Below are positions 30,280 to 60,243 of a DNA stretch of 64,000 bases, piece after piece. This stretch comes from Eledone cirrhosa. Its lineage: Eukaryota. A program made the position numbers and the translations under genes. The DNA is taken from assembly GCA_964016885.1 (NCBI GenBank), contig OZ024740.1, positions 198,586,001-198,650,000 on the forward strand, written 5' to 3'. The first letter of the stretch is position 1; each line of letters begins with the position of its first letter. Below the pieces are notes generated by a model that was given only the letters and a program-made list of their open reading frames with translations, was not told the DNA's origin and ran no database searches.

Positions 30280-30590
30280 AATAATTCTTTCTACTTTTTG
30301 GCACAATGCCAGCAATTACCCAGTATATTACTTGTACTTTAATTTATCAACCCCGTAAGGATGAAAGGTAAAGTTAACCTCGGCGGGATTTAAATTCAGA
30401 TCATAAAGGGACGTAACTCTTTGCGTCAAAGCATGGCGTCCGACCCTCTACCGATACTGCCAATCCACCGCCTATAAAATAATTGTTTCTTCTTTTGGCA
30501 CAAGGCCAGTAATTATCCAGTACATTAGTGGTACTTTATTTTATCGACCCCGTAAGGATGAAAGGCAAAGTTAACCTCGGCGGGATTTGA
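30280..30590 (-). mobile_element. Two tandem SINE copies (one full length, one 5'-truncated)
   Basis: Family match at ~30280-30473 and ~30478-30590. Confidence 0.85.
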
Positions 30591-30791
30591 AAATAATGGA
30601 AGTAAATATTTACAGATTTGTAATAATTTTGAAAGTATTTTTGAAAGTATTTTTGAAAATATTGTTTTTCTGAAAATGAAATAGCTAGCTTCATTTGTAT
30701 TCGAATGACTTGTAAACTGTTCTACAGTAATTTCACTGTATATATTGTCTACATACACCTAATACATGCCATTTCATTATATACCTGTGTG

Positions 30792-30968: not shown

Positions 30969-32389
30969 TTATATGCCAGTGTGACGTGAACGTTCAGATA
31001 GGAATGACCTAGGAAAATACTTAGATTCGAAATAAAATGCTATGGAATGACTATGCATAGTCCTACACAAATCACATATGCAAGGAAAGTATTCGTGCAG
31101 CTATAAGGCGAAATAAGATAAACTATGAAGGACTACTAAACACCGTATAGATGGCATGGTCACATGACAAGATTTTTACCCAAACCCATCATCCAAGAAG
31201 CAGTTGAGGGAGAAAGAAGGATCTTAGAGTGCCATAGAAAAGTAAAATAAAATAAAGTGATTTAAATTTATACATGTTATATCACATAACTCTCGGACAT
31301 ACTATATATTATGGCCATTTTATTGACATTGATTCATTTTTTTTAGAAAAGATAGAAATACCTATCTTTGTACATATTTTCTATTGTTGGTATGGTTGAC
31401 AGAAGCCTGGAATTTGTCCAAGTTTTCTGGATGTTAATCTACTGATAGTACAACATTCCCCCATGTTTATTGCGCAGGTCACTCGCACGGTTAACTCCCA
31501 GATAATGCTGGTTCTTATTTTAGGTTGAGTGCCCTGAAACAACGTTAATTTAAATGTTTTTCTCAGGGTCACAACGTGTCAAAGTCTGCGGATTGAACCC
31601 GAAACATGATCGTGAGCTCAAAACCATAACAAATAGATTAGTGTATTAGGCTTCACACAGATTAGTGTATTAGGCTTCACACAGGGTTGGTGTGACCATT
31701 AGGCCAAAAAGACGGTCGCATAGATTGTATACAAATGAAGAATTTATGCCATTTCTTTCAGTTTATGGAAAATGTATACATAATGTATTTAGATTTCATA
31801 AAAAACACAGGGATACAACATAAACAAATATTGCTAAATACATGGGGAGCAAACTAAATCTGGGATAAAGATTGGATATAAAGGTAATATATTATTGTAC
31901 TCACCATGATCCGAGATAAAGAGATATGATGAAGTGAGTATAAATCTCAATAGTCTATGAGTGAGAAATTATATATAATATTTATATATATATATAGGGA
32001 TGTATATGTTTACGTGTGTGTATGTAGACTAGGGGTTAGATATGTCTTCTTACATTATTACCACACGTTGACAGTAAATATTTCCTTTCATTAATGTTGT
32101 GTCACCTGCAATGATATAATAATAATGATTTCTTTATTAGCCACAGGGGCTGACATGAAGAAGAACATTACAGACGGCACAGAACAGTACATGACGATAC
32201 AACATGGGTTTTCGTCGTCTAAACAGGTTATAACAAGATAGAAATAGGGATAGAAATAAAAAAAAATTCAAACAAAAAAATTCCCCAAAAAGGGGGAATC
32301 CTCCGACGGTCACTCATGGCGAAAACCACACAAAAGACCACGGCCACCCTGACCACCAGGGCAAGCACCCTCTCTCAGTTTCCCACTCC

Positions 32390-35300
32390 TCAGTCTACAA
32401 GCACATACTCAGGGCGGACCCATTCACTCGGACCAGACTCGCCACTTTCAACAAACTTACTAGAAGACAGCACTTGCCTCTCCACTCTGATTTTCCTCTT
32501 CAAGTGAAACTTGAAAAAGTTAATCAGGGATTGGCCGGAGAGGAAAGTCTCCGTCTTCAACCCTTTCAACTTGTCCACCACACAATCTCTTTCGCGATGG
32601 CCACCAGGCAGAAGAAAACTGCCAGCCCTCCTCCTCTTTAAAGGAGGATGGCGGGGCTATCTGTACAATGGACTCGGTCGATAACCGGATCCATCCTACA
32701 CGCAACAGCAGCTGTTCGACATAGCTCCACAAGTCAGCAATCATTGGGCACTGAATGAGTGCGTACGGGACGGTTTCTTCGCCCTGCGCGCATCTCGGAC
32801 AGGCTCGGCTGATAGCCCCTCCGTGCCTGTAGAGCTTATCCAGAACCGGTAACGCTCCCCGTTAGCACTGCCAGGCCAGGGATTTCTGGAAGTTGTCCAT
32901 AGGCCCTGGTCTGAAAGTTCTCTTGAAGAGGGCGAACAGCTGATCGTTTTCGACTCCCAGAGTCTCCTCGAGAGCGTCGTCACTCTTTCTCTCCACAAGC
33001 CCTCTATAGAACGCCGAGGTGGATGTTCCACTGATACTAGTGCCCAGCTGGTAGAGGGCGGTGAGTGCTTGGAGACATTCCAGCTTCTAAGCGCTATCCC
33101 TCGGTTATTTCCCGATCCAGGATTGCAGCTCCGTCAAGGAGACGAGGTGGGGAAAAGAGCGTCTGACAAACGGCGAACACGCCTGTTCACCGTCAAGGAA
33201 GCACCAGAGATGTCCCAGTCTCAGCTAATGTTTGCGCATCATCAGCCACAGCGTGCCTAGTCCTCCACGCAACGGGTCTTGACAACAAATGGATCGTCTA
33301 ACCATGGGAGAACGACCCTTCCACAAAAAGCGGAAGAGAAGGCGCTCCATTTTGGTCAGAGTTTGGCGGAGGCAAGTTACGATGGTCAGGCGGTAGAAGA
33401 TAACGGCCCATTTGTGAGTCAGAGAGGCCACCCAGCTCGTCACCTCTCTCCAGTTCTTCTCCATCTGGAGGTTCGGATTGAACCAGACCCCAAGCAATTT
33501 AACCAGTCCTTCCGTCCAACACACCACGACGCTGTTGGACGACATGGACTTGCCTCTCCAGGTGCCGAGTTGCAAGCCCACCGATCTTTCCTGGTTTATC
33601 TATGCTTCTGTTACCGCTTCGTATTCCTTGAGAGCGGTAGAGAGCATCTGGACGTGTTTGGTGCTCGACACCACCACGGTGACGTCGTCGGCGTTAGCTG
33701 ACATGGATATCCCGCATCCCAGTTCCCGTGGGATCCCCCTCATCGTCTGCAATTTGTGCAGTAACAGCTCGAGGTCCAGTAGGTACAAGAGGGACGAGAG
33801 GGGTCAACCCTGGCGGACCGAGCGCATGATGCTGAAAGGCTGAGACAGGTGACCATTCACTCTCACAATCGAGCAGATGTCGCTGTGCATTGCAACGATC
33901 CAGCCCCTAAAAACGGGCCCGAAGCCAGCCGCCTCGAGGACCACAGCCAGGTACCGATGGTCGACCCTATCAAATGCTTTAGATTAATCCAGGTTAATCA
34001 GGGCCCCACCCGTGTCAGGTTCCTTAACCACACTCTGTATTATGTATCGCATGAGATTGAGGTTGTCGTGGTGGATCTGTCCGGAATGGCTCATGTCTGC
34101 GCCTCTCCCACCAGATCAGCGACGACAAGCGCCAATCTCTTTGCTAACACCTTGGCCAAAATCCGGTCTTTGCTAACACCTTGGCCAAAATCTTAAACTC
34201 TGCGTTTAACAAAGTTATGGGCCTGAAGTCTATAACGTCCCCTTTGTTCGGGTCTTTTCTCAGCAGCGCCATCGCTCTCCGGCTCACAAAACTAGGAATG
34301 CTCCCGTTCTGCTGCCAGTTGCAGTTGACATCTGCCAAGATGTCGTCGAAACGTTTGGCATATACGCATAAAGCTCGTAGTACAGACCATCCAAACCTGG
34401 CGATTTATCCCTCGTGCAGCCAGACATCACTTCCAGTATTTCACCTGCTGTTATCGGCTTTTCGCAACACTGCGCTACGGTCGTCGAGAGCCGCGGAAGT
34501 TTGTCGAGGTATGCACCGAAGTCCATACTCCGGCTGTTGAAAAGCCGCACACATCTGATCGGGTTCGAGCAAAGACCGAATTGTTAACTTGTGGCCACGT
34601 CGAACCTCCACCACCCGGGCCCATTGAACGGCTTTCGTCCCCTCGTGTCTTAGAGAGCGCGCTCTAGCTAGGACAATGCAGCCTTCATGCGTTGAAGAAT
34701 TGGTCGAGTGTCAATCTCGCCGCAAGCAAATCGGTTGCGATGCCTGTCCTAAACGCCTCTTCTAGCTTTCTATCGAACTCTCCCTCTACTCTATTTTCCT
34801 CTATCGCTACTCCTTTGCTAAAACTCTTATCGTTTATACTCTAATAGCCCTTTTCAGGGAAAACCAACACCTGTTGTTGACGATCGCACCCGTCAACACA
34901 CGCTTAAATAATTCGCTAATCCGGTCTCTGTAAGCTTTGCGGGCCGGGAACGACGCGTTCAGCTTCCAGTAGCCGGGTCCTTGGCTATGAAGTCTATCTA
35001 ACTCAACTTCACAGATCACAAATGTGTGGTCCGTGTAGTCGAGTACTTTAAATTGTGGACAACCTACACTAGCCTTATCTGTTTCCCTACAGAATACCCT
35101 ATTTAAATACGATCTGGATGATCCGATGCAGTTTGTCCATGTCCACATTGGCACCCATCGGATATCTAGTCTATACCTGTCAGACAGTTCAAAACGTCTG
35201 AGTAGGTTCTTGAGGCTTTTACATCCTCGTGCTCTGTCTACTAGCCCCACCTAATCCCAGCGTGCATCTAAGATACCGTTCCAGTCGCCCACTAACACTA

Positions 35301-35706
35301 AAGAGCGGGACGTTCCAAGAAATGTCTCTAGACGTCTGAAGAAATCTGGCCGTCCTGCCCCTGTTGGGGTATAGATGGCTACTAGCCTGAAAGCATTGCC
35401 TTCGCTGCCGGTCACGTTCAGCACCACCGACTTACCTTCTGGGTGCAGGAAGATGGCCCGTATGGCGAGTTCCAAGCCACTCCGAAAAAGCACAGCAACT
35501 CCACCTCCCGCTCCTGGACGGCTGGGAGATGCGTATACATCGTAGCCGCCAAAGATCGATGCGAAGGCTCGTGCTTCGGAGATGCTCCTCTCGCTGATGG
35601 CCACCACATCTATGTTTAGTGACCTGAGGTCGTTGAGTATGTGACCCTGCTTCCAAGATGGCCCCAGGCCACGTATATTTATACTGCCTATTCTAAGTAC
35701 GGCCAT
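32390..35706 (-). pseudogene. Tx1 copy A ORF2 (APE endonuclease + reverse transcriptase), disrupted
   Basis: SINIRGL, LVGDWN, YTDH, GYWKLN, KSPGLDGL, FRPITLLN, NADDVT across several frames. Confidence 0.9.
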
Positions 35707-35744
35707 GTTGGTTGAGGAAACGGGGTAAGTGATAAATGATCAAT

Positions 35745-37723
35745 TTACCTTGATCGTGTGGGGAAGGGACAGTAGAACCGTCACTTTGGCTACGCATGGC
35801 TGTTTTCAAGGAGATGTCGGTGTATATCCTCTTGGTAACCGACCCTCTGAAGTCTCCAACTGCGTTGGGGAATTTTTCTTTTGAATGTTTTTAATGTTCT
35901 ATTTTAATTTTAATGATGTTTATATTTTTCAAGAGAGTTCTTGTGATATCTGTCTGCTGCTTTATATGTTGTAAGACGTCTTTATTTACCATGTTAATAG
36001 TTGTGTACTTTTTAGGATGAGGGGTGGTTTTGTTGCTGTTTTCTTGTTGCTGTTGCGTGCGTGTGCTTCGTTGTAGTTGCAATGTTGGTGTTTTTGGTGA
36101 TGTTGGTGGTGATGTGGTTGTTGTTGGTGGTGATGCTTGTGGTGGTGATGGTGATGGTGGTGGTGTTGCTGCAAGTCTCCTTGCAGCCTTTACACCTCTT
36201 TGTTTGCCTTCGCTCTTGGATTGTGAAGCTAAGGTTTTGTTTTTTTTTTTTTTTGTTTTTGTGGCAGACCGTTTGCCACTTCCCTCCCACCTCACACTCC
36301 ATGTCGGATCCCGTGGCGTCTGGGGTATGAGCTCCACTGCTGTTGGTGGCAGTAGTGGAGCCCGCTCCGGCGATATTGACGCCGGTATAGCTACTGCGAC
36401 GGTTGGTGTTGCCGCCACTCCTGCCGCTGTTTTAGTTGTCCGTGGCCTTAGTATGGGTACCACGGACGGTGCCCTCCTACTCACTATGGAAGGGTCTTCT
36501 GCCTCTGTTGCCTGTTCTGCTCTTGGTAGCAGCGGATCAGGCGTCGGAAGGAGGGGGACTTCATCTTGGCTGTCTTCTGTGGCCAGAAGAGCCTGAGGGG
36601 ACCCTTCTGCCGACAGAGATAGTACTTTGGACGTCTTCCTTCCACGCTTATAGGGAGTTGGAGTCCTTCCTCGAGGTCTATGATATCTGGGATGGCCTCA
36701 ATACAGTTTGTATTAGCATTTGGTCAGTTTGTATTAGCATTTGTATGCCTATTTCTGACCGGTTCTCTCTTCACATTCATTTTCTGTACTTGGAGTATAA
36801 TGGTCTTCTCCTCGATTCCAGCAGGTACAGACGCGGCCAGCCAAGGTATGGTCACGTCGGACCTGGGTCACTCTGACCCTCACAATTTTCTGCCCGCAGT
36901 TGGAGGGCACCAAGACTATTTGTTCACTCTTTAAGGTTTCCAAAGAGTGAGACTTCACCGCTTGGGGGTGGCGAAAAGTACGTCTACTGTGGCGTACTTT
37001 TTCCCTCGGGTGATGTGGGTTTTGCGCGCCCAGACGCACCTCAAGACCTTTTAGATTTGAGCCTCCGTGGCTCTCTCCACCCGATGTCACATTTTGCATA
37101 CGGTGCGGTAAGTTACCATGCGCAGTTCCTGGTCTTTAGACATCGGATGGAGGTTTCAGGGAAACTCTATTGTTATTTCTTGTCACCATGGCTCTTGCGA
37201 CTGCCCCCTCCTCTTCCCTGACTAGCACTGTCTCTATATTTCGGGCCACACCTGCGAAGGAAGTGGCCCCATTTTCAGCGGCACCATTATTGCTGCCGCT
37301 ACTGCTGCTACTGGTCTCGTTGTTGATGTTGTTGCTGTTGCTACTTCTACAAACGGTGTTGATGGTGTTGTTGCTGTTATCACTGTTGAAGTTGGTTGTG
37401 TTTTTGGTGCCACCTCTGTTGTTGTTTCTGCTGCAATTTGTATTGTTGCTGTTGTTGTTGTCGTTGTTTATTTTCTTGTTAATGGTGTTAATATCGTTGT
37501 TGCATTTGTTGTCACTTTTTTCTGTTATCCCTATTTTGGTTGTCGCTGTTATTTTTGTAGTTGGTGTGGTAATCTTTTTAAAATTCGTGTTCTCAGTGTT
37601 GTTGTCTTTGTTCACGTTGTTTGTGGTGGTGTTTGTTGTATCAATTTCTGTAACCCTCCTCTCAACTTTTACGCCGCTGTCGCACGACAGCAGACGTATT
37701 GCTGGCGGGCGTAGCTAAGCCAT
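35745..37723 (-). pseudogene. Tx1 copy A ORF1, disrupted
   Basis: N/T-rich N-terminus, SFAGVARN and LVPSNCGQKIVRV are shared with copy B ORF1. Confidence 0.8.
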
Positions 37724-37910
37724 GATTTTATTTTTTTATTTTTAAAAGTAAAATGTTCAAATATTGTTCAGATATTATACTTTCCCCTTCACAGGGAAAA
37801 GTCCAAGGGCTTATATCACTTACACAACAAGAACAATTTAACAACTATTAATTATAACAGGTAAATAAAGCGACTTACTGGGAGCGAGCAAAAAGACGTC
37901 CGAACAGACC

Positions 37911-38118
37911 AATAATAATAATAAAAATAATAATAATAATAATTGTTTCTACTTTAGGCACAAGGCCAGCAATCACCCAGTGCATTACTGGTACTTTATT
38001 TTATCGACCCCGTAAGGATGAAAGGCAAAGTCAACGCCGGAGGGATTTGAACTCAGATCGTAAAGGGACGTAACTATGCTAGAAAGCATGGCGTCCGACC
38101 CTCTACCGATACTGCCAA
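37911..38118 (-). mobile_element. SINE whose (ATT)n tail abuts the 5' end of Tx1 copy A
   Basis: Family match 37941-38118; tail 37911-37943. Confidence 0.9.
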
Positions 38119-39142
38119 AAGAATAATAATAATAACGTGGTGGTAGAAGGTCATGAAATCGCTCCCGTAAGTTTTTGATTTTTAACATATTTAAATCAAT
38201 TGTGAACTAACAATTCTTAGTACAAATGATACATAAAGCACCGAATCAAGTCTCATAAAAATTCGGATCCATAATATATTGTTATATCGCTCAAATATTT
38301 AATTTTGTATTATACATTTTATATTCGAAAAAGAAAATGGTTATAAATGGAAAAAAACCCCTCTGTCTACACTATATAGAACAGCCAAATAACAGAAATT
38401 TCACCAACACCAGAAACTAGATACACCACCTACCCAATCACCCCGCTGTGTACACTAAATACAACAGCCAGATAAGGGCAATTTCACAACCACCACCACC
38501 AATCCAAGCATCATAATAATAATTACTATTATTATTGTCTCAAGTTTTAACAAAATGTTTAATTCCAATATTAAGGGATTATGTCAACACATATATTAAA
38601 CATACGCGACACAAACGCATAGATACTACAGATCAAACAAAACTACAGTCTATTCAACAAAACTCAGTAACGACAACGCCACCGCCGCCACCACTCCACC
38701 CATCATTGCTACCACTATCCCATCACCGCCGCCACCCTTCCTTCATTGCTACCACCACTATTCCCCATTACCTTCTGTTAACTTAAGAAAGGGGAAGGTC
38801 GCGGTATCACTGGACAAGGGAGAGGTTAGCAAAAGATATAAATAGATTGACTTAGTGACCCGGCCACCGGCCAACGTCAACAACTATGGCACTGCTGGCT
38901 CCCGCCTTCCCTACCAACAATATAAAAAGCCCCAGCACCACCACCGACATAGTCAACAACAATAACAGGCAACTTCAGCAAAAAGTATATTATATTATTG
39001 TAATGCACTGGGCAGTTGCTGGCCTTGTGCCTGGAGTGGAGACAATTATTAATAATTTCATTCTTAAGCCACGCAATGCTCACATTAAGGAACCACTCAT
39101 GATAATAACAATTTAAAAAAACAACAAAAAAGAAAACCCCGT

Positions 39143-39231
39143 GACCAAGAAATACCGGGATGGCGGCCGGCGGGGAATAGCCGTGTCTCTAGGGGAGAAC
39201 GACCCCTCTAGTCTTGGTTGACACTCGTTCT
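39143..39231 (+). ncRNA. Candidate HDV-like ribozyme at the 5' end of the Dong-like element
   Basis: Ordered pairings P1 GACCAA/TTGGTT, P2 AGAAC/GTTCT, P3 GAC/GTC with loop CCCTCTA. P1.1 and J4/2 are non-canonical. Confidence 0.3.
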
Positions 39232-39296
39232 AGAAGTGGTAACACGAAATGATTACCCCTTGGCGGATAAGGATGAAACGCGACAAAATAAAGTAA

Positions 39297-42200
39297 ATGT
39301 CTAATGATAAAATCTCATACCGGATCGGCCGTCACCCGGATCAGAGAGGAAACAGACTGGGGTCGAAAAATCAGCTAATGGTTCAAACCTTCCCATCACT
39401 TCGGAGCTGGAGACCTCCCATAACCGGAATACTCCTACTGTTGGCCCTCCATGCTCACCACCAAGAAATCCAAAGAAAAAGAGAGAGAAATTGTCTAGGG
39501 AAGACAATAAAGAAGTCCTTGAGGCTTTCTACACTGCCATGTGCTACCCATCAAATACATCGAATACAGAACAGACATATATCAACTGGAAAAATAAACA
39601 TCCCGAAAACTGAGGCTATATTGACAGTAACAAACTAGCCAATATACGAAGAAATATTGTAAAAAAAATGTTACTAACTGATATAGAAATTGATCAGATC
39701 AAGCTATTAGCACAAAGTCAGCGAAGGGAAAATGAAACATGTGTCAGTGAAAACGAGGTAAATTGTAACACTTCGAATCCCAGGGTTGGGGCGGAATCAC
39801 TGACAACAGAACAAATTAAAGAAAGGATCGAAAAAGTGGAGGGAGTACATGCTCAAGATGAAACTCCAAATGAAAACAATGAGATCGTAAATGATAAAGA
39901 AATGAATGCGAATGAACTTGCCAACTTGAAGGATGAAATTATGAACGAATGGATGAAAATGAAAAAATCTGACATGGGGGAACGAGACACCCTCCCTAAG
40001 ATCCAGAACTCCAAACAGAACCAAAAGATAATACACAAGACTAACATAATTATCAAAAAAATTATCATCACAAACAAACTAAACATTACTGATTTAAATC
40101 ATCTCTATTATGCATCGGCTAAAGTCACCACTCACTTATGTGGAGTGAAGATGAAAAAACAAAGGAATTTCCACAAGAAATCTACTTGGCAAGAAAAAAT
40201 CAATCGCCAAATAAACCTTCTCCGATCTGGCATAGACATTTTAAAAAACAAACTAAACTTAAAAAATTGAAAAGAAAGTACAGTATAAAACCAACAAGTG
40301 ACATAGGCATGCTGATAGAAATAATCAAGCAAAAAGTGTCGGCCAAAGCTGCTCGTATAAGGCGCTTTGAAAAACGATCTAGATTTTATAAGGACAATAT
40401 GTTCAAAACCAACCAAAGAAACTTCTACAGAAAAATTAGTAAGTCAACAATAACTGCTAAATCAATACCACCCAAGGAGGAAGTGCAAGAATTCTGGGAA
40501 AAGATCTGGGCCGAAGAAAAAGTTCATAATATATGGATAGACAGACAAATGAAAGATACAGCTCACCTTGAGGAACAAACATGGGAAAATATAACAGTTG
40601 GACAGTTGCGTTTGGCTCTAAGAAAAACCAGCAAATGGAAATCCCCAGGAAAAGACAAAATACAACATTTTTGGATAATTGTCTTCACAGAGTCTCATGA
40701 GCTGTTAGCCCAACTTTACAATGAAATAGTTAAGGAGCCAGAAAAGATAGCATCATGGCTAGTTAACGGCATTACATTCCTGCTTCCGAAGAATGATGGA
40801 CAAACAATCCCAAAAATTACAGACCGATAAATTGCTTGACCACAATGTGTGAAATTTTAACATCAGTCCTAACTGAATATACATATAACCACCTGATAAC
40901 ACATGACCTATTTCCCATTCAGCAGAAAGGGTGTAAACGAGGCTCATATGGCTGTAAGGATCAGCTTTTGGTTAACAAAATGATACTGGAAGATTGTCAT
41001 AGTAGACACACAAATCTATCAATTGCTTGGATAGATTATAAAAATGCATTCGATAGTTTGCCACACAGTTGGATTGAAAAATGTTTAGAGATTTTCAAAA
41101 TATCCCCCGTTGTCAGGAGGTTTTTGTCATTCAGTATGAAGACATGGAAAACGACACTCCTTTTGAATAGTGAAACAAAATCACTGGAAGCTGGAGAAGT
41201 TAATATTAATTGTGGAATTTTTCAGGGTGACTATTTATCACCGCTTTTATTCTGCATCGCACTTATACCATTAAGTAAAATGCTCAATGAAACAAAACAT
41301 GGATATAAAGTCTATGACAAAACCATTAATCACTTGTTCAACACGGATGACCTGAAACTATTTGCAAAAAATGATGAACAATTGCAAGGGCTATTATCCA
41401 CTCTGGAGCAGTTCAGTGATGACATTAAAATGGAGTTTGGACTAGATAAATGCGCCAAAGAAACGTTCACCAGAGGAAAGCTGCTGAAAAGTTCAGACAT
41501 TAATCTTGATCGAGGGAATGTGATAAGAGAACTTGATCAAGAGGAAACTTACAAATATCTAGGTGTTTGTGAAGGAGACGGAATCAAGCACTCGACAATG
41601 AGGGTAAGGATAAGGAAGGAATGTTACCGTAGAGTAAGAGCAATTTTAAGAACGGAATTGAATGCAAGGAATAGGATCGATGCCATAAACAGGCTTGCCA
41701 TACCAGTAGTAACCTACAGTTACAATGTCATCAACTGGTAAAACACAGAGATCCGTAGGCTCGATACAAAAATTCGAAAATTTTTAACCATGCACAGAAT
41801 GCATCACCTTAAGGCAGATACATATAGAATACATCTCCCTAGGAAAGAAGGAGGACATTGCGTTGAAAACTGCAACAATTGGATTATCTACATATCTAAA
41901 GGAATCACATGATTGGATGATCAAACTCGTTTTGAAACACGAAAGCATCAACAGATCATACTCCATTACAAAATATGCACAAAGATACAGTAATGGACTA
42001 CACATTTCAGAAGTCCCATTTACTGCTGAAATGGAAAACACAGAAAAAGCAAAGCAGGTAAAAGTAACTGCAAAGAAAGAACTGCTACAGAGACTGGCTA
42101 AGAAATGGCAAGAAAAGCCTCCGTATGGAAAATACCCAGAACGAGCTAACAATCTTGATGTTGACAAAACTTTAACCCATCAGTGGTTAGCATCCTCTGG

Positions 42201-42850
42201 ACTGAAATCGGAGAGTGAAGGACTGATTATATCAGCACAAGATCAGTGTCTGCCAACATAATAAAAAATGGATGCAGCCCATTATGCCGTGTATGTAAAA
42301 AACAACCAGAGACCATTGACCATATAATTTCAATGTGCAGTCCTATAGCTCCAACCGAATACCTAAACAGGCATGACAAGCTGCACAATACATACATTGG
42401 ATAATGTGTAAGCATTTTGACCTGCCCCATCAAAAGAATTGGTGGGAGCATCAACCACCTCCCATACTTGAAAAAGATCACATCTCAATCTTGTGGAACT
42501 TTAGCATCCAAACAGACCGAAAAACAGATGCAAATAGACCTGATATAATATTGAAGGACTTTAAAAAGAGAGTATGCCTGCTAATTGATATGTTCGTTCC
42601 AATAGACAAGAATGTATCTATAAAAGCATTTGAAAAATTGAGCAAGTATAAGGACTTGGAGATAGAAATTGGAAAAATGTGGAAATTGAGAACTAAAACA
42701 CTACCAGAGGTTGTAGGTGCTCTAGGAATGATACCTAAGGGGTCTAATGATTACTTATCGCAAATCCCAGGAAACCCGCGTATAGGAGAAATACAAAAGA
42801 TAGTACTAATGGGAACTGCCCATATACTAAGGAACATTCTGTCAATATAA
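39297..42850 (+). pseudogene. R4/Dong-like RT-REL polyprotein, frameshifted
   Basis: KSPGKDKI, QKGC, WIDYKNAFDS, GIFQGDYLSPLLF, NTDDLKL (YMDD mutated), YKYLG, CRVC..ETIDHIISMC, RHDK, NRPDI..LIDM, KYKDL. Confidence 0.9.
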
Positions 42851-42993
42851 GTACATCACAAGTCTAAACACTAAAGATGCATGTGTGAGTATGTATGTTC
42901 TTTCTTGAACATGGCGGACCTTGTTGTCTCTTGAGGTCACTGGTTGCGACTTGGTGATAACTCGTATGAACATAAAGCAAGATAAATGCAGCT

Positions 42994-42995
<2 letters not shown>

Positions 42996-43046
<51 letters not shown>
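42996..43046. repeat. (TAA)17 between convergent Dong-like and Tx1 3' ends
   Basis: Pure TAA tract joining the two 3' ends. Confidence 0.95.
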
Positions 43047-43048
<2 letters not shown>

Positions 43049-43296
43049 TTTCTTTATTAACCACAAGGGTTTACATAAAGTAGACATTAAGGACAGTGCA
43101 GGACAATACAGGTCGGTACAAATGGGCATTTCTGCGTGTAAAAAACAAAAACAGAGGATGTAACAAAAAATAACAATGAAAAATTCCCCAATAGGGGGGA
43201 GACTTCGGAGGGACATTTGTGGAGAATGCCCAGTAAAAGGCCACAATGACCCTGACCACCAAGGCAAGTGCCGTCTCCCAGTTTTCCACCTTTAAT

Positions 43297-46200
43297 TTAC
43301 AGATATATACTCAGAGTAGGCCCATTCACTCGGGCCATTCTTGCTTCTCTCACCCATCTTTCAACAAAATGCTGGGAAGAGAGCACTTCCCTCTCTACTC
43401 TGATTTTCCTTTTCAAATGAAATTTGAAAAAGTCAATCAGAGCATCACCGAAGAGGTAAGTGCTCGTCTTCAGCCCTTTCAAACGTGTCCACCATACTAT
43501 CTCTTTCGCCATGGCCACCAGACAGATAAAAACTGCCTTGCCTTCCCGGCTAAAGGATGAGGGCGGGCCAATCCTCACGATGGACTCAGATGATAGCCGG
43601 ATCCGTCCTAAACGCGACAGCAGGTGTTCGACATAAACCCACAAGTCAACAATTTTCGGACAGTGGACGAGTGCGTGCAGGACGGTTTCGTCGCCCTGCG
43701 CGCATCTCGGACATGCCCGGCTGACGGCACCTCCATGCCTGTAGAGTTTATCCCGAACTGGCAAGGCTCCTCGGTAGCACTGCCAGGCCAGAGATTTCTG
43801 GAAGTTGTCCATAGGCCCTGACCCGAAAGTTCTTCCGAAGAGATTGGCTAATTGATTTTCGTCGACGACTAGAGTTTCCCCAAGTACGTCGTCGCTCTTC
43901 CCCTCCACTAATCCTCTATAGAACGCCGAGGTGGAGTTTCCACCGATCACATTGCCCGATTGGCCGAGGGCTGTCAGCGCCTGAAGACATTCCAGTCTCC
44001 AGGCGCTCCCTCTCGGTCTTCGCTTGACCCAGGACTGCAGCTCCGTCAAGGAAACGAGCTGGGGAAATACGTGTCTAGCAAACGGCGACTACACCTGATC
44101 ACCGTCGAGGAAGAGGTGGAGATGTCGTAGCCTGAGCGCGTGTCTGCGCATCATCAGCCACGACATGCCCAGCCCTCCACGTAGCGGGTGCTGACAACAG
44201 ATGGACCGCCTGACCATCGGAGCGCGTCCCTTCCACAAAAAGCGAAAGAGCAAACGCTCCAGCGCAGTCAGGAGAGGCTTAGGACAAGGTACGACGGTCA
44301 GGCGGTAGCAGATGACAGACGCGATGTACGCGTTAGCCACCTCCGCTCGACCTTTCAGGGATAGCTTCCTCTCCGCCCATTTCTGGGTGAGAGAAGCCAC
44401 CCTGCTCGTCACCTCGTCCCAGATTTTGTCCGTCTGGAGGTCCGGACCGAACCAGACCCCTAGCAATTTAACCGGTCCGTCCGTCCAGCGTCCAACGACG
44501 CTGTTGGAGGGCATGGACGTGCCTCTCCAGGTGCCGAGCTGCAGGCCCACTGACTTTTCCTGGTTGATCATTGCTCCTCTCACCGCTTCGTATTCTGTTA
44601 GTGTAGTGCCGATCGCCTCGATGTGTTTGGCGTTCGACACCACTACGGTGACATCGTCCGCATATGCTGACACGGATATACCGCATCCTAGTTCGCGCGG
44701 GACGCCCCTCAACGTCTCCAGTTTGTGCAGTAATGGCTCGAGAGTCAATACGTACAAGAGGGACGAGAGGGGACATCCTTGGCGGACCGAGCGCATGATG
44801 TTGAACGGTTCCGACAGGTGACCGTTCACTCTCACCACAGAGCAGATGTCGCTGTGCATGGTAGCGATCCAGCCTCTGAAGACGGGCCCAAAGCCAGCCG
44901 CCCTCAGGACTGCCGCTAGGAAACGATGGTCGACCCTATCGAAAGCTTTCGACTGATCTAAATTGATCAAGGAGCCACCCGTGCCAGGTTCCCTAGCTAC
45001 CCCCTCTACGATGTATCACATGAGGTAGAGGTTGTCGTGGATGGATCTGTCGGGAATGGCGTATGTCTGCGCCTCTCCCACCAGACCACCAACGACAAGC
45101 GCCAACCTCTTTGCTAGCACCTTGGCCAAAATCTTGAACTCTGTGTTTAGCAGAGTTATGGGCCAGAAATTATCTATGTTATCCCCCTTGTTCGGATCCT
45201 TTCTCAGCAGTGCCACCGCTCCTCGGCTCACATAACTGGGAATTCTCCCGTTCTGTTGCCAGTTGCAGTAGACGTCCGCCAAGAGGCCTCCGAACAAGTC
45301 TGGCATCTGTACGTAAAGTTCATAGGGCAGACCATCCAAACCAGGCGATTTACCCCTTGTGCAGCCAGTCATTGCCTCCCTTACTTCAGCGGCTGTTATC
45401 GGCTTTTCGCAACACCTCGCCTCAGTGGCCGAGAGCCGCGGCAGTCCGTCGAGGTAGACACTAAAGTCCATCCCTCGATCCGGCCCACCGCTGCCCCCGA
45501 ATAGCTGAGCTAAGTGTCGCTGAAAAGCTTCACACATTTGCCCGGGATCGAGTAGCATGCGCCCGTCGTGGTCCACCAAAGACCGGATCGCGGCTTTGTT
45601 GCCACGACGCGCCTCCGCCATTCGGGCCCATTGAACGGCTTTCGTCCCCTCGTGTCTGAGAGCACGCACCCTTGCTCTGACAACGCAGCCTTCGTGCTTT
45701 GTATTGAAGAATTGGTCAAGGGCCAATTTCGCCGCAAGGACGTCGGTCGCAATGCCTTTGCTAAGCGCCTCGTCTAATTTTCTAACTAGTTCTCCCTCTG
45801 CTCTATTTTTCTCTATTGCTAAAGCCTTACTAAACCTAATGGATTCTATTCTACTCGCTCTTTTCAGAGCAAACCACCACTTGTTGTTGACGATGGCCCC
45901 GTCAAGGCCCGCTTAACTAGTTCGCTAATCCGGTCTCTGTAGGCCTTGCGCGCTGGTAAGGACGCGTTTAGCTTCCAGTAGCCGAGTCCTCGTCTATGAA
46001 GCCTATCTAAGTCAAGCACACAGATCACGAATTTGTGGTCCGTGTAGCTGAATATCTTGAATTGTGGACAGCCTATGCTAGACCTATCTATTTCCCTACA
46101 AAATACTCTATCTAGATATGATCTGGATGACCCTATGCGATTTGTCCAAGTCCACATTGGCACATTCGGGAAATCCAATCGGTATCTGTCAGACAGTTCA

Positions 46201-46714
46201 AAACGCCTGAGCAGGTTGGTGAGGCTCTTGCACCCTCCACCCTTATCCGCTAATCCCACACAGTCCCAGCGTGCATCTAAGATCCCGTTCCAGTCGCCCA
46301 CTAACACTAAAGAGCGGGGCGTTCCAAGAAAGGTCTCCAGACGCCGGAGAAATCAGGCCGCCCTGCTCCTGTCGGGGCATAGACGGCCACTAGCCTGAAC
46401 GCTTGCCCGTCTCCGCTGGTCATGTCCAGCACCATCAACTTACCCCCTGGGTCCAGGAAGATAGCCCGTATGGCGAGATCCAAACCTCTCCAAAAAAGCA
46501 CAGCAACTCCACCCCCCGATCCAGGACGGCTGGGAGATGCGTACACATCGTAGCCGCCGAAGATCGGTGCGAAGGCCCGTGCTTCGGAGATTCTGGTCTC
46601 GCTGATGGCCACTACATCTATGTTTAGTGACCTGAGGTCGTTGAGCAGGTGACCCTGCTTCCATGACGACCCCAAGCCACGCGCATTTATGCTGCCTATT
46701 CTGAGTGAGGTCAT
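43297..46714 (-). pseudogene. Tx1 copy B ORF2 (APE, RT, C-terminal zinc finger), few frameshifts/stops
   Basis: SINARGL, ISETR, VYAP, GDWN, YLDRV, YTDH, LDQSKAFDRVDH, VRQGCPLS, YADD, CPRC..ETVLHALVHC. Confidence 0.93.
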
Positions 46715-46749
46715 GTTTAAAATAGAGTGGAAAAGATGGGAAAGACCAC

Positions 46750-48801
46750 TTACCGTACTTTTCGTAGAGGAGGGATGGTTTTTACATCCCTTTTCACTTG
46801 ATCGTCTGGTGAAGGGACCGTTGAATCGTCCCTTCGGCTGGTCGTCGGCTCTTCTATGAGTATGTCCGAATATACTCTTCGATTGATAGTTCCTCCTAGG
46901 TCCCTGAAATCACCAACTGCGTTGGGGAATTTCGTTTTAATGTTTGTGTATTGTTTCTGTGCTATTTTTAGCAGTCTTATGTTAGTTGGCGTTTTGATTG
47001 GTGCTGGTATTATGTAGTCGTGTTGTGAAATGTCTGTGTGTTCAATTATGTAAGACATTAGTTTATTGTTGTGTGTATTTATCGCCGTGCATTTGTTTTT
47101 CTGGGGGTGGGGTGTGGTTCTGCTATTTTCTTGTCGTTGTTGCTGGGTGTGTGTGTTTTGTTGTTGTGTTTGCGATGTTGGTGCTTGTGGTGGTGGTGTT
47201 GAAGGTGTTGTTGGCGGTGGGGTTGTCGCCGGTGGTGATGGTGGTGCTAGTGTGGGTGGTGATGGTGTTGGTGGTGTTGCTGCTGTGAGTCTCTTTGCAG
47301 TAGACTTTACCCTTTTCTCATTTCTTTCCTCCATTTTCAAAGGCGACGATGCGCTGCTTCTGCGTTTGTGCCTTCTTACGACCTTTTGTCATCCCTCTCC
47401 CACCTCACACTCCATGTCTGATTCTGTGAGGTCGGGGAGCTGTACCAGCTCCACTCTTTCACTTGTTGTTGTTGGTGATGTTTGCACTGGAGTCTCTGTT
47501 GCAGCTGCATTTGGTATTGCTGTTGTTGTTGTTAATATTTCCACTGCTGCTGCTGTTTTTAATTTCCGTGGCGTGGGTATGGGTGCCACGGACCTATCGT
47601 TCCTGGTTGCCGCTTGTCCTGTTGCTGGTAGCCGTGGACCCAGTTCCTGAAAGAGGGGGGTTTTCTCCTTTCTCAGAGTCTTCTCGTTGCAGAAGGCCCT
47701 GAGGTGAGTCTTTGATCCACAGCGAAAGCATTTCGGGCCTTTGCCCTCAACACTTATGGGCAGTTGAGTGCCGTTATCGAAGTCTATCACATCCGGGATA
47801 GCTTGGATGCACTCCTGGTTGGTTTGGATTAGCATCTCAATGGAGGTGCCGACCCAATCTTCTCTTACTTTTTTCTGTACTTGCAGTACAGTTGTTTTGT
47901 CATCGATTCCGACGAGGACAGACGCGGCCAGCCAAGAAGGGGCCATCCCGGGGGGGGGGACGTGGGTCAGTTTGACCCTCACAATTTTTTGCCCGCAGTA
48001 GGAGGGCACCAACACCATTTCCTCGCTCCTTAGGGTCACTACGGATTGAGCCTTTGCCTCCTGGGGTGTGGCAAAAAGTACGTCTACGGTGGCATATTTT
48101 TTGCCTCGGGTGATGTGCGTTTTCCGCTGCCACACAGACTCCAAGGCTTTTTGTATTTGGGCCTCTGTGGCTCTTTCAACCCTACGGGATTTTGTACTTA
48201 CTGTACGGTACGTGACCGTACAGTGCTGTTGGGTTTCGAAAAATGTTTCCGCTGCCTTGCAGATTGCTCGGTGTCCAGTCTTTGTCACCATCTTCTTCGC
48301 TTCCTCTAATTCCTCATTTGTTATGAGGATTGTTTCCAGGTTTTTCGCAATACCTGCAAATGAGATTGGTTTTTCTTTGCTGCTGTTGTTGTTGTTGTCG
48401 TCAGAGCTGCTGTTACTTTTGTTGTTGCTGCAGGTACTACGACTACTGTCTCCGCCGCTGTTGCTGTGGTTGTTGTTGGTTTTGCTGCTGGTGATGCTGT
48501 TGCGGCTGCTACTGTTGTTTTCATTGTCACTGTTGCTGTTGTTATTACGGCTGCTACTGCTATTATTCCTGACGTCAGACGAATGAACTGGGTTTTCGTA
48601 TTTCCCGCACACCTGTTTCGTCGTTGTCGTCGTCGTCGTGGAGAAATCTTGCACGCTTTGCACGAGACTTTTCTTTTTTGTCGTCGCTTGCGAAAGAGAA
48701 GGGAGGGAGAGAGACAATCTTCTCTCTGCTGTAGTGATGATTGAGGAAGAAGAAGACGGAATGAGTGGGAGTGACCTATGAAAATTCTTTTTCGTAGCCA
48801 A
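46750..48801 (-). pseudogene. Tx1 copy B ORF1 (gag-like, CCHC zinc knuckle), one frameshift
   Basis: 470-aa plus 196-aa ORFs; CFRCGSKTHLRAFC fits CX2CX4HX4C. The start is a non-ATG codon in this copy. Confidence 0.85.
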
Positions 48802-49018
48802 GTTGTTTTTTTTTGTTTAAAATAAATATTGGGCACAAAACCCCAATAAGCAGTTATTTAACCCCGAAGGGCCAAATAACGGGCAGAAAGACCCCTCTCA
48901 CGAGGAGGAGGGTGTTTTTGTCTACAAGTTCGTTAAAGTTTTAAACAATTTACAATTGTTATAGCGTTCAAAATTTACAATACCTTACAGAGCCGAGCCT
49001 CCGTCAACCATAGCATTC

Positions 49019-49060
<42 letters not shown>

Positions 49061-49062
<2 letters not shown>

Positions 49063-51976
49063 TTTCATTTATTAGCCACAAGGGCCGACATGTAGGGGAC
49101 AATACAAAGACAGGGACAGTGGGGGTTTACAATAAGGTCGAGTAAAAGTGCACAATGGCAAGACTAATTTAACAATGAAAATATAAAAATATAAAATAAA
49201 CTATGCATAAATATAACAAAATAAATTCCCCGATAGGGGGTGGACGACCTGGGGTGATTCGGGTACCCCACCAATCCTGAACCACCCTGCGCTTCTAGGG
49301 CACCCAGGGAGAGCACCCCTCTCCTCAAGTTAGCCAGCCTATAGGCGCATGGTCAGAGTAGGCCCATTCACACGAGCCATTCTCGCCAAATTCACCCACC
49401 TTTTAGCAAATGTACTGGGGGGCAGCACTTCAATCTCCACCGTCACTCTCCTTTCCAGGTGAAACTTGAAGAAGTTGATGAGGGATTGGCCGAAGAGAAA
49501 AATGTTTGTCTTTAGTTTTTTCAACCTGGTCCACCATATAATCTTTTTCGCAACTGCCACCAGACAGAGGAAAATGTCCTGCTCTTCCTGACATAAGGAA
49601 GGTGGCGGCTCGATCTTCACTATGGACTCGGCCGATAGCCGGATTCGTTCCACACGCGACAGTAGCTGTTCGACATAACTCCACAAGTCAGTAATGCACG
49701 GACATTGGACAAGTGCGTGCAGAACGGTTTCGTCGTTCTGTGCGCATCTTGGGCAGGTCCGTCTGACAGCACTTCCGTGCCTGTAGAGTTTATCCTGAAC
49801 CGGCAGTGCCCCCCGGTAGCACTGCCAAGAGAGGGATTTCTGGAAACTGTCCATCGTCCCCGGCTCAAATGTCCTCCGGTACAGACTGATCAGTTCGGCT
49901 TCGTCGAGGCCCAAAGCTTCTCCGAGTGCGTCATCGCACTTGCCCACCACTAATCCTCTATAGAACTCGAGAGTGGATGTTCCACTGATCGCATTGCCCG
50001 CTTGGTAGAGGGCAGTGAGTGCCTGGCAACATTCCAGGTGCCAGTCACCCAGTCTCGGTCTCTTCTTGACCCAAGACTGCAGCTCAGTCAAAGAAATGAG
50101 CTGCGGAAAGGCCCGTCTGATAAACGGCGACCACACCTGTTCACTGTTTAGGCAGAATATCTGGAGATGTCGCAGCCTCAACGCATGTCTGCGCATCATT
50201 GGCCACGGCATGCCCAGCTCTCGCGTAGAGGGTGCGGGCAGCAGATGGACCGCCTCACCAACGGAACTTGTCCCCTCCACAAGAATTTGAAGAGGAGACG
50301 TTCCAACTTGACGAGGCGCGGACGGGGGCAATGCACGACGGTTAGGCGGTAGTAGATGACGGACGCGATGTACGCATTCGCCACCTCCGCGCGACCTTTC
50401 AGTGATAGCTTCCTCCCAGCCCATTTTTGGGTGAGACTGGCTACTCTGCTCGTTACCTCGTCCCAATTCTTTTCCACCTAGAGGTCTGGTCCTAACCAAA
50501 CCCCGAGCAACTTTACCGGTCCGTCCGTCCAGCGCCCCACGATGCTGTTGGACGGCATGGGCTTGCCTCTCCAGGTTCCGAGCTGCACGCCCACCGACTT
50601 TTCCGGGTTAAGTTTGGCTCCTGTCAACCTTTCATATTCCTTCAGTAAGGTGCCGACCACCTCAATTTCTGAGGTGTTCGACACCATCACGGTGATGTCG
50701 TCCTCATAAGCCGACACCGCCTTTCCACGTCCCGGTTCAAGAGGGATGCCCTGAAACAGCTCTAGCTTCCGCAGTAAAGGCTCGAGAGTCAATACGTACA
50801 GAAGGGAAGAGAGCGGGCACCCTTCACGGACCGATTGGGAGAGCCGAAATGGTTCCGAGAGGTGGCCATTAACCTTGACCACCGAGCGTGTGTCGCTGTG
50901 CATTGCAACGATCCTGCTTCTAAAGACAGGGCCGAAGCCAGCTGCTTTGAGGACAAACTCCAGATACCGATGGTCGACCCTATCGAATGCTTTCGATTGA
51001 TCTAAATTATTCAGTGCCCCACCGAAGCCAGGTTTACACCCTACCCTCTCTATGATGTATCGCATGAGGTGGAGATTGTCGTGTATGAACCTGGCTGGGA
51101 TTGCGCAAGTTTGCGCCTCCCCAACCAAATCCTCGACGACAAGCGCCAATCTCTTTGCTAACACCTTGGCCAAAATATTAAACTCTGTGTTGAGCAGAGT
51201 TATGGGCCTGAAGTTGTCTCATGTATCCCTCTTGTTTTCGTCTTTTCTTATCAGCGTCACCACTCTCCTGTTCACAGAACTGGGAATACTCCATTCTGCT
51301 GCCAGTTGCAGTAGAGTGCTTCGAGGAGTTCGGAGAACAATCTGGCATATTTACGTAAAGCTCGTAGGGCAGGCCATCCAAACCGGGTGATTTGCGCCTC
51401 ATGCAGCCGACAAGGGCGTCCTGAATTTCGGCTGAAGTAATCGGCCTTTCGCAGCGCTCAGCGTCGACCGTCGAGATGCGCGGCAAGCCGTCAAGGTAGG
51501 GACTGAAATCTGCTACTCTCTCAACTCGCCACTCTCTCTGAACAACCGAGCAAAGTGCTGGCTCAAGGCCTCACACATCCGCTTGGAATCGCTTATCTCG
51601 TGTCCGTCTCGGTCCGCCAAAGACCGAATTGTGGTTTTATTACCACGCTGCGCCTCTGCCACGCGGGCCCATCGAACAGCTTTAGTTCCCTCGTTTCTCA
51701 GCGCACGCGCCTTAGCTCTGACAATGCAACCTTCGTGTTTGGCGTTGAAGAAATGGTCTAATGCCATTCTCGCCGCTAGCACGTCAGTTGCGATGCCACT
51801 ACAAATAGCCTCGTCTAACTTATCTACCAGCTCCCCCTCCTTTCTATTTTTCTCTAACGCTAGTTCTTTGCTGAACTCTATCGAAGTTACTCTAATCTCT
51901 CTTTTGAGAGAACCCACCACCTGTTGTTGATGATCCCCCCTATCAACTTTTGCTTAACTAAATTGTTGACTCGGTC
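49061..51976 (-). mobile_element. 5'-truncated Tx1/L1-clade LINE (copy C, distinct subfamily)
   Basis: LDQSKAFDRVDH, VREGCPLS, YEDD, CPRC..HALVQC. The 3' end lies in the (AAT)14 tract at 49019-49060. Confidence 0.92.
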
Positions 51977-53985
51977 ATAAAAGACAAACAAGATTGTCAT
52001 AAAAGACAAACAAATCTATCAAATGCTTCGATAGATTACATAAAAGCATTCGACAGTTTGCCACACAGTTGGATTGATAATTGTTCAGAGATTTTCAAAA
52101 TATCTCCCGTTGTCAGGAGGTCCTGCCATTCAGTATGAAAACATGGAAGACAAGACTTCTTTTGAATAATGAAAAAAAATCACTGGAAGCTGGAGAAGTT
52201 AATATTGATTGTGGACTTTTTCAGGTTGACTCCTTTATCACCACTTTTATTCTGCATCACATTTATACCATTAATTGAAACACTCAATGAAACATGGATA
52301 AAAAGTCTATGACAAAATCATTTATCACGTGTTCTACATGGATGACGTGAAACAATTTACAAAAAGTGATGAGTAATTGCAAGGGGTATTATCCACTGTG
52401 AAGCAGTTCAGTGATGACATTAAAATGGAGTTGACTAGATAAATGCGCCAAAGCCACGTTCATCAGAGGCAAGCTTGATCCGGGGAATGTGATAACAGAA
52501 CTTGATCAAGAGGAAACTTACAAATATCTAGGTGTTTGTGAAAGAGACAGAATCAAGCACTCGACAATGAGGGAAAGGATAAGGAAGGAATACTAGCGCA
52601 GAGTAAGAGCAATCTTAAGAACGGATTTGACATCAAGGAATAGGATCGATGCCATGAACACGCTTGCCATACGAATAGTAACCTACAGTTACAATGTCAT
52701 CAACTGGTCAAGCACAGAGATCCGTAGGCTCGATACAAAAATTAGAAAATTCTTAAACATCACAGAATTCATCATCCTAAGGCAGATACAGATAGAATAT
52801 ATCTCCCTAGGAAAGAAGGAGGACGTGGATTAATCCATTTAGATATTGCTTTAAAAACTGCAACAATTGGATTATCTACATATCTAAGGGAGGCACATGA
52901 TTGGATGATCAAACTCGTTTTGAAAAATTAAAGCATCAAAAGATCATAATACATTACAAAGGATGCACAAAGAGACAGTAATGGACTACAAATTTCGGAA
53001 GTTCCCTTTACTGCTGAAATGATAAACACAGAAAAAGCAAAGCAGGTAAAAGTAACTGCAAAGAAAGAACTGCTACAGAAACTCGCTAAGAAATGGCAAA
53101 AAAACCTCTTTATGGAAAACCCCCAGAAAGAATTAACAATCCTGATGTTGACAAAACTTTAATCCATCAGTGGTTGGCATCCTCTGGACTGAAATCGGAG
53201 ACTGAAGGACTGGTTATATCAGCACAAGATCAGTGTCTGCCAACACAAAATTATCAAGTCAACATAATAAAAGATGGATGCAACCAATTATGCCGTGTAT
53301 GTAGAAAACAACCAGAGACCATTGATCTTATAATTTCAATGTGCAGTCGTATAGCTCCAACCGAATACCTAAACAGAGCTGCACAATACATACATTGGGT
53401 AATGTGTAAGCATTTTGACCTGCATAATCAAAAGAATTGGTGGGAGCATCAACCACCTCCCGTACTTGAAAAAGATCACATCTGAATCTTGTCGATCTTT
53501 AGCCTCCATACAGAGTGAAAAATAGATGCAAATAGACCTGATATAATACTGAAGGACTTTTAAAAAGAGGGTATGCCTGCTAATTGATATGTCCGTTCCA
53601 ATAGACAAGAATGTATCTATAAAAATATTTGAAAAATTGAGCTGAAAGTATCTATAAAAACATTGGAAAAATGTAGAAGTTGAGAACTAAAACAATACCA
53701 GTGGTTGTAGGCGCTCTAGGAATGATACCTAAGGTGTCTTATGATTACTTATCCCAAATCCCAGGAAATCCGCGTATAGAAGAAATACAAAAGATAGTAC
53801 TAATAGGAACTGCCCATATACTAAGGAAGATTCTGTCAATATAAATACATGACAGGTCTAAACACCTAAAGACAGATGTATGTGTGTATGTGTTCTTTCT
53901 TGAACATGGCGGCCCTTGTTGTCTCTTGAGGTCACTGGTTGTGACTTGGTGATAACTCGTATGAACATAAAGCAAGATATATGAA
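51974..53985 (+). mobile_element. 5'-truncated R4/Dong-like element (copy D2)
   Basis: Collinear with ~40990-42990; FYMDD, CRVC, RPDI, and a closely similar 3' UTR ending in degenerate TAA. Confidence 0.92.
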
Positions 53986-53999
53986 ATAATAGTAATAAT

Positions 54000-54545
54000 G
54001 GTTTCTTTACTAACCACAAAAGCGTTTACAAAAACCATACATTAAGGACGGCACAGAACGGTACAAATAGGGGTTTCTGTGTATAAAAACAAACAAACAA
54101 ACAAAAACAAATGATGAAAGAAAAAAATTGAAACAAAGGAAGATTCAACAATAGTGGGGAGACCTTCGAGGTTCACTCGTAAAAAAAAGTCCACAAAACG
54201 CTACGTTGACCCTGACCACAAGGGCAAGTTTCATTTCCCAGTTACTCTGCAATCTAAAGGCTCATACTAGAGCAGGCCCATTCCCGTGGTCCATGCTAAC
54301 CTCTGTCACCCATGTTTCAACAAACTGCTGGGAAGGGAGCACTTCCCCCTCCACTCTTATTTTACTTTCCAGTCTCCAAGCGCTTACCCTCAATTTTCGC
54401 TTGACACAGCACTGCAGCTTTTTTAAGGATACAAGCTGGGACAACATGCATATGGTGATCGGCGACCATACCTGTTCACTGTTAAGGAAAAGATGGAGAA
54501 GTGGCAGCCTCAGCGGATGTCTGCGTATCGGACGCATATAACGAA
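54000..54545 (-). mobile_element. Tx1 3'-end fragment (copy E), internally deleted
   Basis: 3' terminus similar to A-C; peptide RRHPLRL..EQVWSP..KIRVEGEVLPSQQFVETWV. Confidence 0.8.
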
Positions 54546-57780: not shown

Positions 57781-57969
57781 AACTGTTTCTACTTTAGGCA
57801 CAAGGCCAGCAATTACCCAGTGCATTACTGGTACTTTATTTTATCGACCCCGTAAGGATGAAAGGCAAAGTCAACCTCGGCGGGATTTGAACTCAGATCG
57901 TAAAGGGACGTAACTATGCTGGAAAGCATGGCGTCCGACCCTCTACTGAAACTGCCAATCCACCGCCCT
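57781..57969 (-). mobile_element. Full-length SINE with TSD
   Basis: Family match; taagtaaataa on both sides. Confidence 0.9.
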
Positions 57970-58710: not shown

Positions 58711-59508
<798 letters not shown>

Positions 59509-59549
59509 TTACTCGTTGTAACCCAACAATTTTAAATAAAACTTTTGCA

Positions 59550-59617
<68 letters not shown>

Positions 59618-59620
<3 letters not shown>

Positions 59621-59749
59621 CTGTTTCTACTTTAGGCACAAGGCCAGCAATTACACAGTGCATTACTGGTACTTTATTTTATCGACCCCGTAAGGATGAA
59701 AGGCAAAATCAACCTCGGCGGGATTTGAACTCAGATCGTAAAGGGACGT
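59618..59749 (-). mobile_element. 5'-truncated SINE in TA tract
   Basis: Family match. Confidence 0.88.
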
Positions 59750-60159: not shown

Positions 60160-60190
60160 TATATATATATATATAAGTATAGATATATAT

Positions 60191-60227
<37 letters not shown>

Positions 60228-60243
60228 TATACATATATATATA

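Follow-up and report, generated by a model that had tools for sequence, protein, structure and literature searches.

We describe a cluster of long interspersed nuclear elements (LINEs) in a 64,000-nucleotide stretch of contig OZ024740.1 of the octopod Eledone cirrhosa (assembly GCA_964016885.1, positions 198,586,001 to 198,650,000; hereafter the window), in which elements of two lineages meet at tracts of the trinucleotide repeat (ATT)n. Four copies of L1/Tx1-type LINEs, here called A, B, C and E, lie at one locus, all on the minus strand. An earlier note on this DNA had reported four diverged Tx1-like copies in a single orientation, and these were found as it described them, 67–75% alike. It had missed two Dong/R4-like LINEs, D and D2, which make up about 5.9 kb of the cluster interval on the strand opposite to A, B, C and E. 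Read along the plus strand, the order is A reversed, a tract split by a repeat resembling a short interspersed nuclear element (SINE), about 1 kb of other DNA, D, a tract and B reversed, followed by a second tract, C reversed, D2, a tract and E reversed (Table 1). The SINE-like repeat is likewise absent from the earlier note.

Table 1. Elements, repeat tracts and junction features of the cluster, in plus-strand order (positions in the window).
Feature	Position	Strand	Remarks
(AAT)3 tract	32118-32126		3′ end of A; unique flank past the tract
Copy A	32127-37910	-	Full-length, decayed L1/Tx1-type LINE with many stops, frame changes and deletions
(AAT)4-AAA-(AAT)6 tract	37911-37943		11 units, 93% matches; abuts 5′ end of A
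SINE-like repeat, ~180 bp	37944-38121	+	Inside the 5′ tract of A; 14-nt AAT-repeat duplication on both sides
(AAT)4-AA	38122-38135		Right-hand remnant of the 5′ tract of A, split by the SINE
Copy D	~39100-42994	+	Near full-length, decayed Dong/R4-like LINE; 5′ boundary not defined
(TAA)17-T tract	42995-43046		3′ tail of D (+) and 3′ tail of B (-)
Copy B	43047-49018	-	Full-length, best-preserved L1/Tx1-type LINE of the cluster; leader ~215 nt
(AAT)14 tract	49019-49060		Flanks B at its 5′ end; also 3′ tail of C
Copy C	49061-~51976	-	5′-truncated L1/Tx1-type LINE, reverse transcriptase to 3′ end
13-nt copy of nearby D2 sequence	51977-51989	+	Head-to-head C/D2 junction; 3-nt shared GTC
Copy D2	51990-53983	+	5′-truncated Dong/R4-like LINE, 87% like D
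AAT AAT AGT AAT AAT tract	53985-53999		5 units with 1 mismatch; between 3′ ends of D2 and E
Copy E	54000-~54540	-	Old 3′ fragment of L1/Tx1-type LINE

The 3′ ends of all four L1/Tx1-type copies pass into (ATT)3–17 in the same phase. They share the signature GTGG(C/T)TA(A/G)TAAA(T)GAAA(T/C)C, followed by ATT units. On the sense strand the ends read GTGG(C/T)TAATAAAGAAATC-ATT in A and B, GTGGCTAATAAATGAAATC-ATT in C and GTGGTTAGTAAAGAAACC-ATT in E. In every copy an AATAAA or AGTAAA hexamer stands 6–7 nt before the junction and poly(A) is absent, and this signature has been retained across families with only 67–75% identity. The longest 3′ tract is that of B (17 units, 42996–43046). At the other end, both full-length copies directly abut an ATT tract, of 11 units in A and 14 units in B, and both junctions read ...ATT|G. 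These observations bear out the earlier note, which had described an AATAAA-type signature with (ATT)n at the 3′ ends of A–C and a degenerate version in E, (ATT)n directly at both full-length 5′ ends, and a head-to-tail joint of B and C through (AAT)14.

Chance cannot account for the ATT tracts that flank each full-length copy on both sides. In the 41.5 kb of the window outside the cluster, at least three ATT-phase units stand directly upstream of 32 out of 83,002 strand positions, five units at one position and six or more at none, so that the 11- and 14-unit tracts at both full-length 5′ ends cannot be chance. A general liking for simple repeats was considered and rejected, because AT repeats outweigh AAT repeats in the same 41.5 kb by 2334 to 51 perfect microsatellite bases (AC and AG repeats contribute 594 and 204).

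Insertion into a tract is seen most clearly in copy A. Its 5′ tract is interrupted by the SINE-like repeat, which matches 14 places in the window, this one included (others are, for example, 3822–3993, 8108–8281, 14872–15046 and 57784–57958). The copies are 82–96% alike and most are flanked by AT-rich target duplications of 11–16 nt. We rejected the idea that the 5′ tract of A is the tail of this SINE, since this copy interrupts the tract and is flanked by an AAT duplication; the remaining full-length copies in the window have duplications of other AT-rich sequence and lack an AAT-repeat tail.

The junctions of A, B, C and E are independent and not duplicated. If a single ancestral block of Dong, tract and LINE had been duplicated, in tandem or segmentally, this would be in keeping with the alignment of D-tract-B (40990–43415) with D2-tract-E (51990–54371) as a single 83% match. 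However, the two halves of this match differ in divergence: D and D2 mismatch at 29 of 356 aligned bases and B and E at 71 of 353 (92% versus 80% identity; Fisher p 5e-6), and B and E are as distant from each other as A from B and B from C. The unequal divergence means that D–B and D2–E arose by separate insertions, and a block duplication of D-tract-B was rejected for this reason. Moreover, A, B and C are 72–75% alike and share no flank. Duplication as the source of the junctions is thus largely refuted, and we consider it highly improbable.

Judged by DNA identity (A/B 72.6–75.5%, A/C 72%, B/C 75.4%, E against A, B and C 67–75%), the copies are members of different families rather than recent copies of one, and at least three diverged families are represented. 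In A, a leader of about 190 nt precedes ORF1 (ORF, open reading frame), and ORF2, from 35706, has apurinic-type endonuclease (APE), reverse transcriptase (RT) and zinc-knuckle regions. ORF1 of B carries a CCHC knuckle at 47730, and its ORF2 (46714–43297; APE, RT, zf-RVT) is interrupted by two stops and two frame changes. Compared with B, copy E has lost some 570 nt from its interior. Pieces of B match the Pfam domains Exo_endo_phos, RVT_1 and zf-RVT, and the endonuclease of A matches Exo_endo_phos (E 2.9e-11). The APE catalytic motifs are present in both, except for point changes in the decayed A. A profile of B with 17 relatives gives E values of 8e-113 for human L1 ORF2p and 3e-37 for R2 proteins. 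By these matches and by the order of ORF1 followed by an APE-RT-zinc ORF2, as in the L1 group, A, B, C and E are classed as APE-RT-zinc-knuckle LINEs of L1/Tx1 type. The APE endonuclease proposed earlier therefore stands, and the single family proposed with it gives way to several. A Pfam MBD match in ORF1 fell under the cut-off and was not used, and no claim is made for a 3′ stem-loop, which is weak at −3.3 kcal/mol with a covariation of −0.06. Copy A also contains short tandem duplications at 34146–34190 and 36704–36743 (about 31 nt in the RT region and 21 nt in ORF1).

Copies D and D2 both end in TAA tracts. D and B share one such tract at their 3′ ends, and D2 and E share another, so that both pairs are joined tail-to-tail. 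D has a single ORF with RT, a CCHC knuckle and C-terminal restriction-like endonuclease motifs, and it matches the single-ORF relative P0209 over its whole length. Its RT finds R2 proteins as the best match in PDB (E 2e-14), ahead of L1 (1e-5). We take its CCHC, RHD and RPDI...DM...K motifs to be a restriction-like endonuclease signature. With a single ORF, RT, CCHC, C-terminal restriction-like endonuclease and TAA 3′ end, D and D2 have, as far as their sequences tell, the anatomy of Dong/R4 elements; no Dong- or R4-named protein stands among the 120 homologs listed for D. Near the 5′ end of D there is only a degenerate ATAATAACAAT.

Taken together, A, B, C and E represent separate, diverged insertions of an APE-bearing L1/Tx1-type LINE lineage that probably targets (ATT)n/(AAT)n, with two of the tracts shared with the Dong/R4-like LINEs. 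The anatomy of the junctions is observed, and the steps of the following model, including the specificity of the endonuclease for ATT, are our inference. According to this model, the first step would be a nick made by the APE domain in the AAT strand of a tract. The transcript would run a few units beyond the element end and so carry AUU units, because with a hexamer as close as 6–7 nt to the junction, the RNA would be expected to end in the tract. Base pairing of these AUU units with the nicked strand would prime reverse transcription, and second-strand cleavage in the repeat would leave tract on both sides, so that each insertion adds a new tract. Dong/R4-like elements, whose endonuclease is unrelated, would enter the same repeat on the opposite strand. 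Insertions of either lineage would then create sites for further insertions of both, and a stack of both kinds would grow. The earlier note had suggested that each insertion regenerates a target and builds the cluster; this idea is kept in our model, except that the Tx1-like elements are not the sole builders, as two of the tracts are also tails of Dong/R4-like elements. Finally, C, D2 and E would have lost their 5′ parts to later deletions. Secondary deletion is a plausible reason for the missing 5′ tracts of C, where the 13-nt templated copy would be a deletion-repair scar resembling microhomology-mediated repair, and of E, with its internal deletion.

Several points weigh against this reading. 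Support at 5′ ends is limited to two full-length junctions at one locus. ATT is absent at the 5′ junctions of both 5′-truncated copies (C and E, 0/2), a point that the earlier note did not mention, the 3′ tract of A has only three units, and the 5′ tract of B may simply be the tail of C. The place of RNA cleavage in our model comes from general knowledge of poly(A) signals. Furthermore, among the 80 metagenome loci listed, which are relatives at 24–37% identity, none has an ATT/AAT run of at least five units. The ATT habit is thus not general among distant L1-type elements, and these loci, none of which carries the lineage motif LGVW[FY]GPD, are silent on close relatives. The tests run do not separate recognition by the endonuclease from priming by a pairing tail.

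Some of these points would follow if (ATT)n were a 3′ tail only and the 5′ tracts came from landing in a LINE pile-up that Dong and earlier tails had already made rich in AAT. The sharing of one tract by the 5′ end of B and the 3′ end of C, the supply of two tracts by Dong/R4-like tails, the single locus and the truncated copies without 5′ tracts are all in keeping with such an origin. However, the tracts make up only about 160 of the 22,400 cluster bases, and exact in-phase matches in two out of two cases are unlikely by chance. In addition, no Dong-like element lies closer than about 1.1 kb to the 5′ tract of A, and this tract is not the tail of the SINE. We therefore regard a mere tail as quite unlikely to account for the 5′ tracts.

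A preference for the repeat could also be real and yet arise at priming, if the element's own (AUU)n 3′ tail paired with an AAT run while a relaxed endonuclease nicked AT-rich DNA widely. Such priming would fit the flank counts in the window, where ATT stands at four of four 3′ flanks and at two of four 5′ flanks. Encoded short-repeat ends are known in other LINEs, such as TAA in the I element and TGTAA in UnaL2 (PMC3747384). Moreover, in A and B the hairpin-loop stretch of the endonuclease is short, much as in their nearest relatives, and shorter than in the two aligned proteins of a fish/turtle group. On the other hand, the 5′ ends of the full-length copies both lie at long tracts (11 and 14 units) and in the same phase, and no full-length copy lies in the far commoner AT repeats or in short AAT runs. 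The Tx1L endonuclease is itself sequence-specific in vitro, and its hairpin loop contributes to target choice (PMC1950540), but we found in the loop of A or B no feature that predicts a target. Priming alone seems to us unlikely, although it deserves serious consideration beside the endonuclease targeting that we favour.

The place of these copies among L1-type elements was examined in an RT tree of 65 hand-picked rows and 404 columns with SH-aLRT support, rooted on relatives of D. A second tree (FastTree, 190 rows, midpoint root) gave the same neighbours; both trees excluded copy E and matches that covered less than about 280–330 of the 431 query residues. The closest named relative is from Argonauta hians (67%); other relatives are 76–81% identical and the next group about 36–50%. 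In the 65-row tree A–C group with Argonauta and relatives at 40–44% (SH-aLRT 99.9), and then with pseudoscorpion proteins (99.8). The nearest larger group is a tight one (99.9) with fugu P0508 and turtle P0328, linked to A–C at a support of 76.4 with one further row included. We take this fugu/turtle group to be Tx1-like from its motifs. A–C fall outside it, in a lineage with octopod members, and this position hints that their targeting may have had an origin separate from Kibi and Koshi. The RT motif of B, DQSKAFDRVDH, resembles DQEKAFDRVEH of fugu P0508 and is unlike DIRKAFDSVNW of Ciona P0442 and DAEKAFDKIQQ of human L1; we assume it to be diagnostic of the Tx1 type. Homolog searches, cluster look-ups of 30 proteins and Atlas returned no protein named Tx1, Keno, Kibi or Koshi, and on a tree without named Tx1 references Tx1-like is a fair label for A–C.

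The B family is multi-copy in all four public runs searched. B was matched by 59,558, 73,408, 37 and 9,881 contigs, with 30 of 30 bins covered in each run, where contig depth is no copy number and the repeat ends of B are not covered. The last bin of B holds its level in run X5 (107,039 against about 98,000 expected if flat) and reaches 133,753 against about 159,000 in run X1. This cover reaches almost to the 5′ tract and supports the 5′ end of B as the family's own end. One contig of run X8 extends about 29 letters beyond the 3′ end of B; it fits a graph contig ending in a long repeat and was not counted. No relative was found in viral and prokaryote collections.

Microsatellite targeting by LINEs is already known. 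Tx1-clade families target (TC)n (Kibi), (TTC)n (Koshi) and, in crocodilians, (TTCC)n/(TTTC)n (PMC4494074; PMC3812793), and the earlier note was right to name Kibi, Koshi and the U2 snRNA-specific Keno (PMC4640811) as sequence-specific members of the clade. Targets of other APE-type LINEs are ACAY and AC (PMC3812793). The Kibi, Koshi and crocodilian elements resemble A, B, C and E in being of APE-RT L1/Tx1 type, in being flanked by one microsatellite motif in a fixed orientation and in stacking head-to-tail. Our copies differ from this group in their probable target, ATT, which has no C, and in their octopod host; their junction tracts are all (ATT)n and not the pyrimidine-rich repeats of the Kibi/Koshi subgroup. 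A Tx1 family has been called target-specific when one sequence type makes up more than 20% of its flanks genome-wide (PMC4494074).

The microsatellite in which A, B, C and E lie is also the target of Dong elements. Dong (Bombyx), DongAg (mosquito), DongBg (the snail Biomphalaria) and Rex6 are R4-clade LINEs that target TAA repeats (PMC3812793; PMC1635306). D and D2 share the Dong anatomy and its (TAA)n ends. A, B, C and E would share the target with Dong, but have two ORFs and an N-terminal APE instead of one ORF and a C-terminal restriction-like endonuclease, and their sense strand reads ATT where that of Dong reads TAA, so that the two types run in opposite directions in a tract. Two lineages on one repeated target have precedents: TRAS1 and SART1 share (TTAGG)n in opposite directions (PMC7265360), and Keno and Utopia share a U2 snRNA gene site with different endonucleases (PMC4640811). 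Unlike in either pair, opposite directions and unrelated endonucleases would be combined here, on a dispersed microsatellite that the insertions themselves would renew.

Dong-R4 LINEs are abundant in Octopus (PMC13282606, PMC8967140, PMC9115989). In Octopus vulgaris they amount to 93 Mb, and the L1-Tx1 class comprises 80 families and 56.3 Mb, with 13 families recently active (PMC13282606). The families of A, B, C and E are probably already annotated under this class. The word 'target' does not occur in the main text of that paper (PMC13282606), and for the terms searched its supplement lists nothing but totals. In the literature searched we found no Tx1-type family that targets ATT, AAT or TAA, in line with the earlier note, which knew of none with ATT specificity; Repbase, Dfam and the fuller target lists of PMC4494074 may hold one. 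An ATT target for a Tx1-type element is thus probably new.

Several further features were seen. SINE-like copies form a tandem pair at 30288–30591, and at 58863–60852 (TA)n/(TG)n tracts lie in a palindromic array with SINE-like copies in opposite orientations. Long, near-perfect inverted repeats occur at 16189–16500 (97% over 312 bp) and 17752–18299 (83% over about 550 bp), and they could be fold-back or miniature DNA transposons. No Rfam match was found in the window. Among the protein relatives, P0329 and P0474–P0483 from Patella caerulea are APE-RT proteins of about 1150 amino acids with near-consecutive locus tags (SNE40_003393–003415) on one contig. They probably represent a related LINE arranged in tandem, perhaps one that is target-specific as well.

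A wider proposal, which we put forward tentatively as a possibility more doubtful than the reading of this locus, is that in an octopod L1/Tx1-related lineage an ATT-specific APE evolved apart from Kibi and Koshi and converged on the TAA target of Dong from the opposite strand, and that the two lineages provide landing pads for each other and form mixed LINE stacks in AAT tracts genome-wide in octopods. If the targeting is true, the ATT target of an APE-type Tx1-like element, its host group, and the use of one microsatellite on opposite strands by an APE lineage and a restriction-like endonuclease lineage would be new. The two lineages would then form a natural pair in which to weigh cutting against RNA–DNA pairing in targeting. 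Moreover, a new specificity would be added to the series of APE endonucleases, and it would help to explain the LINE clusters of octopod genomes.

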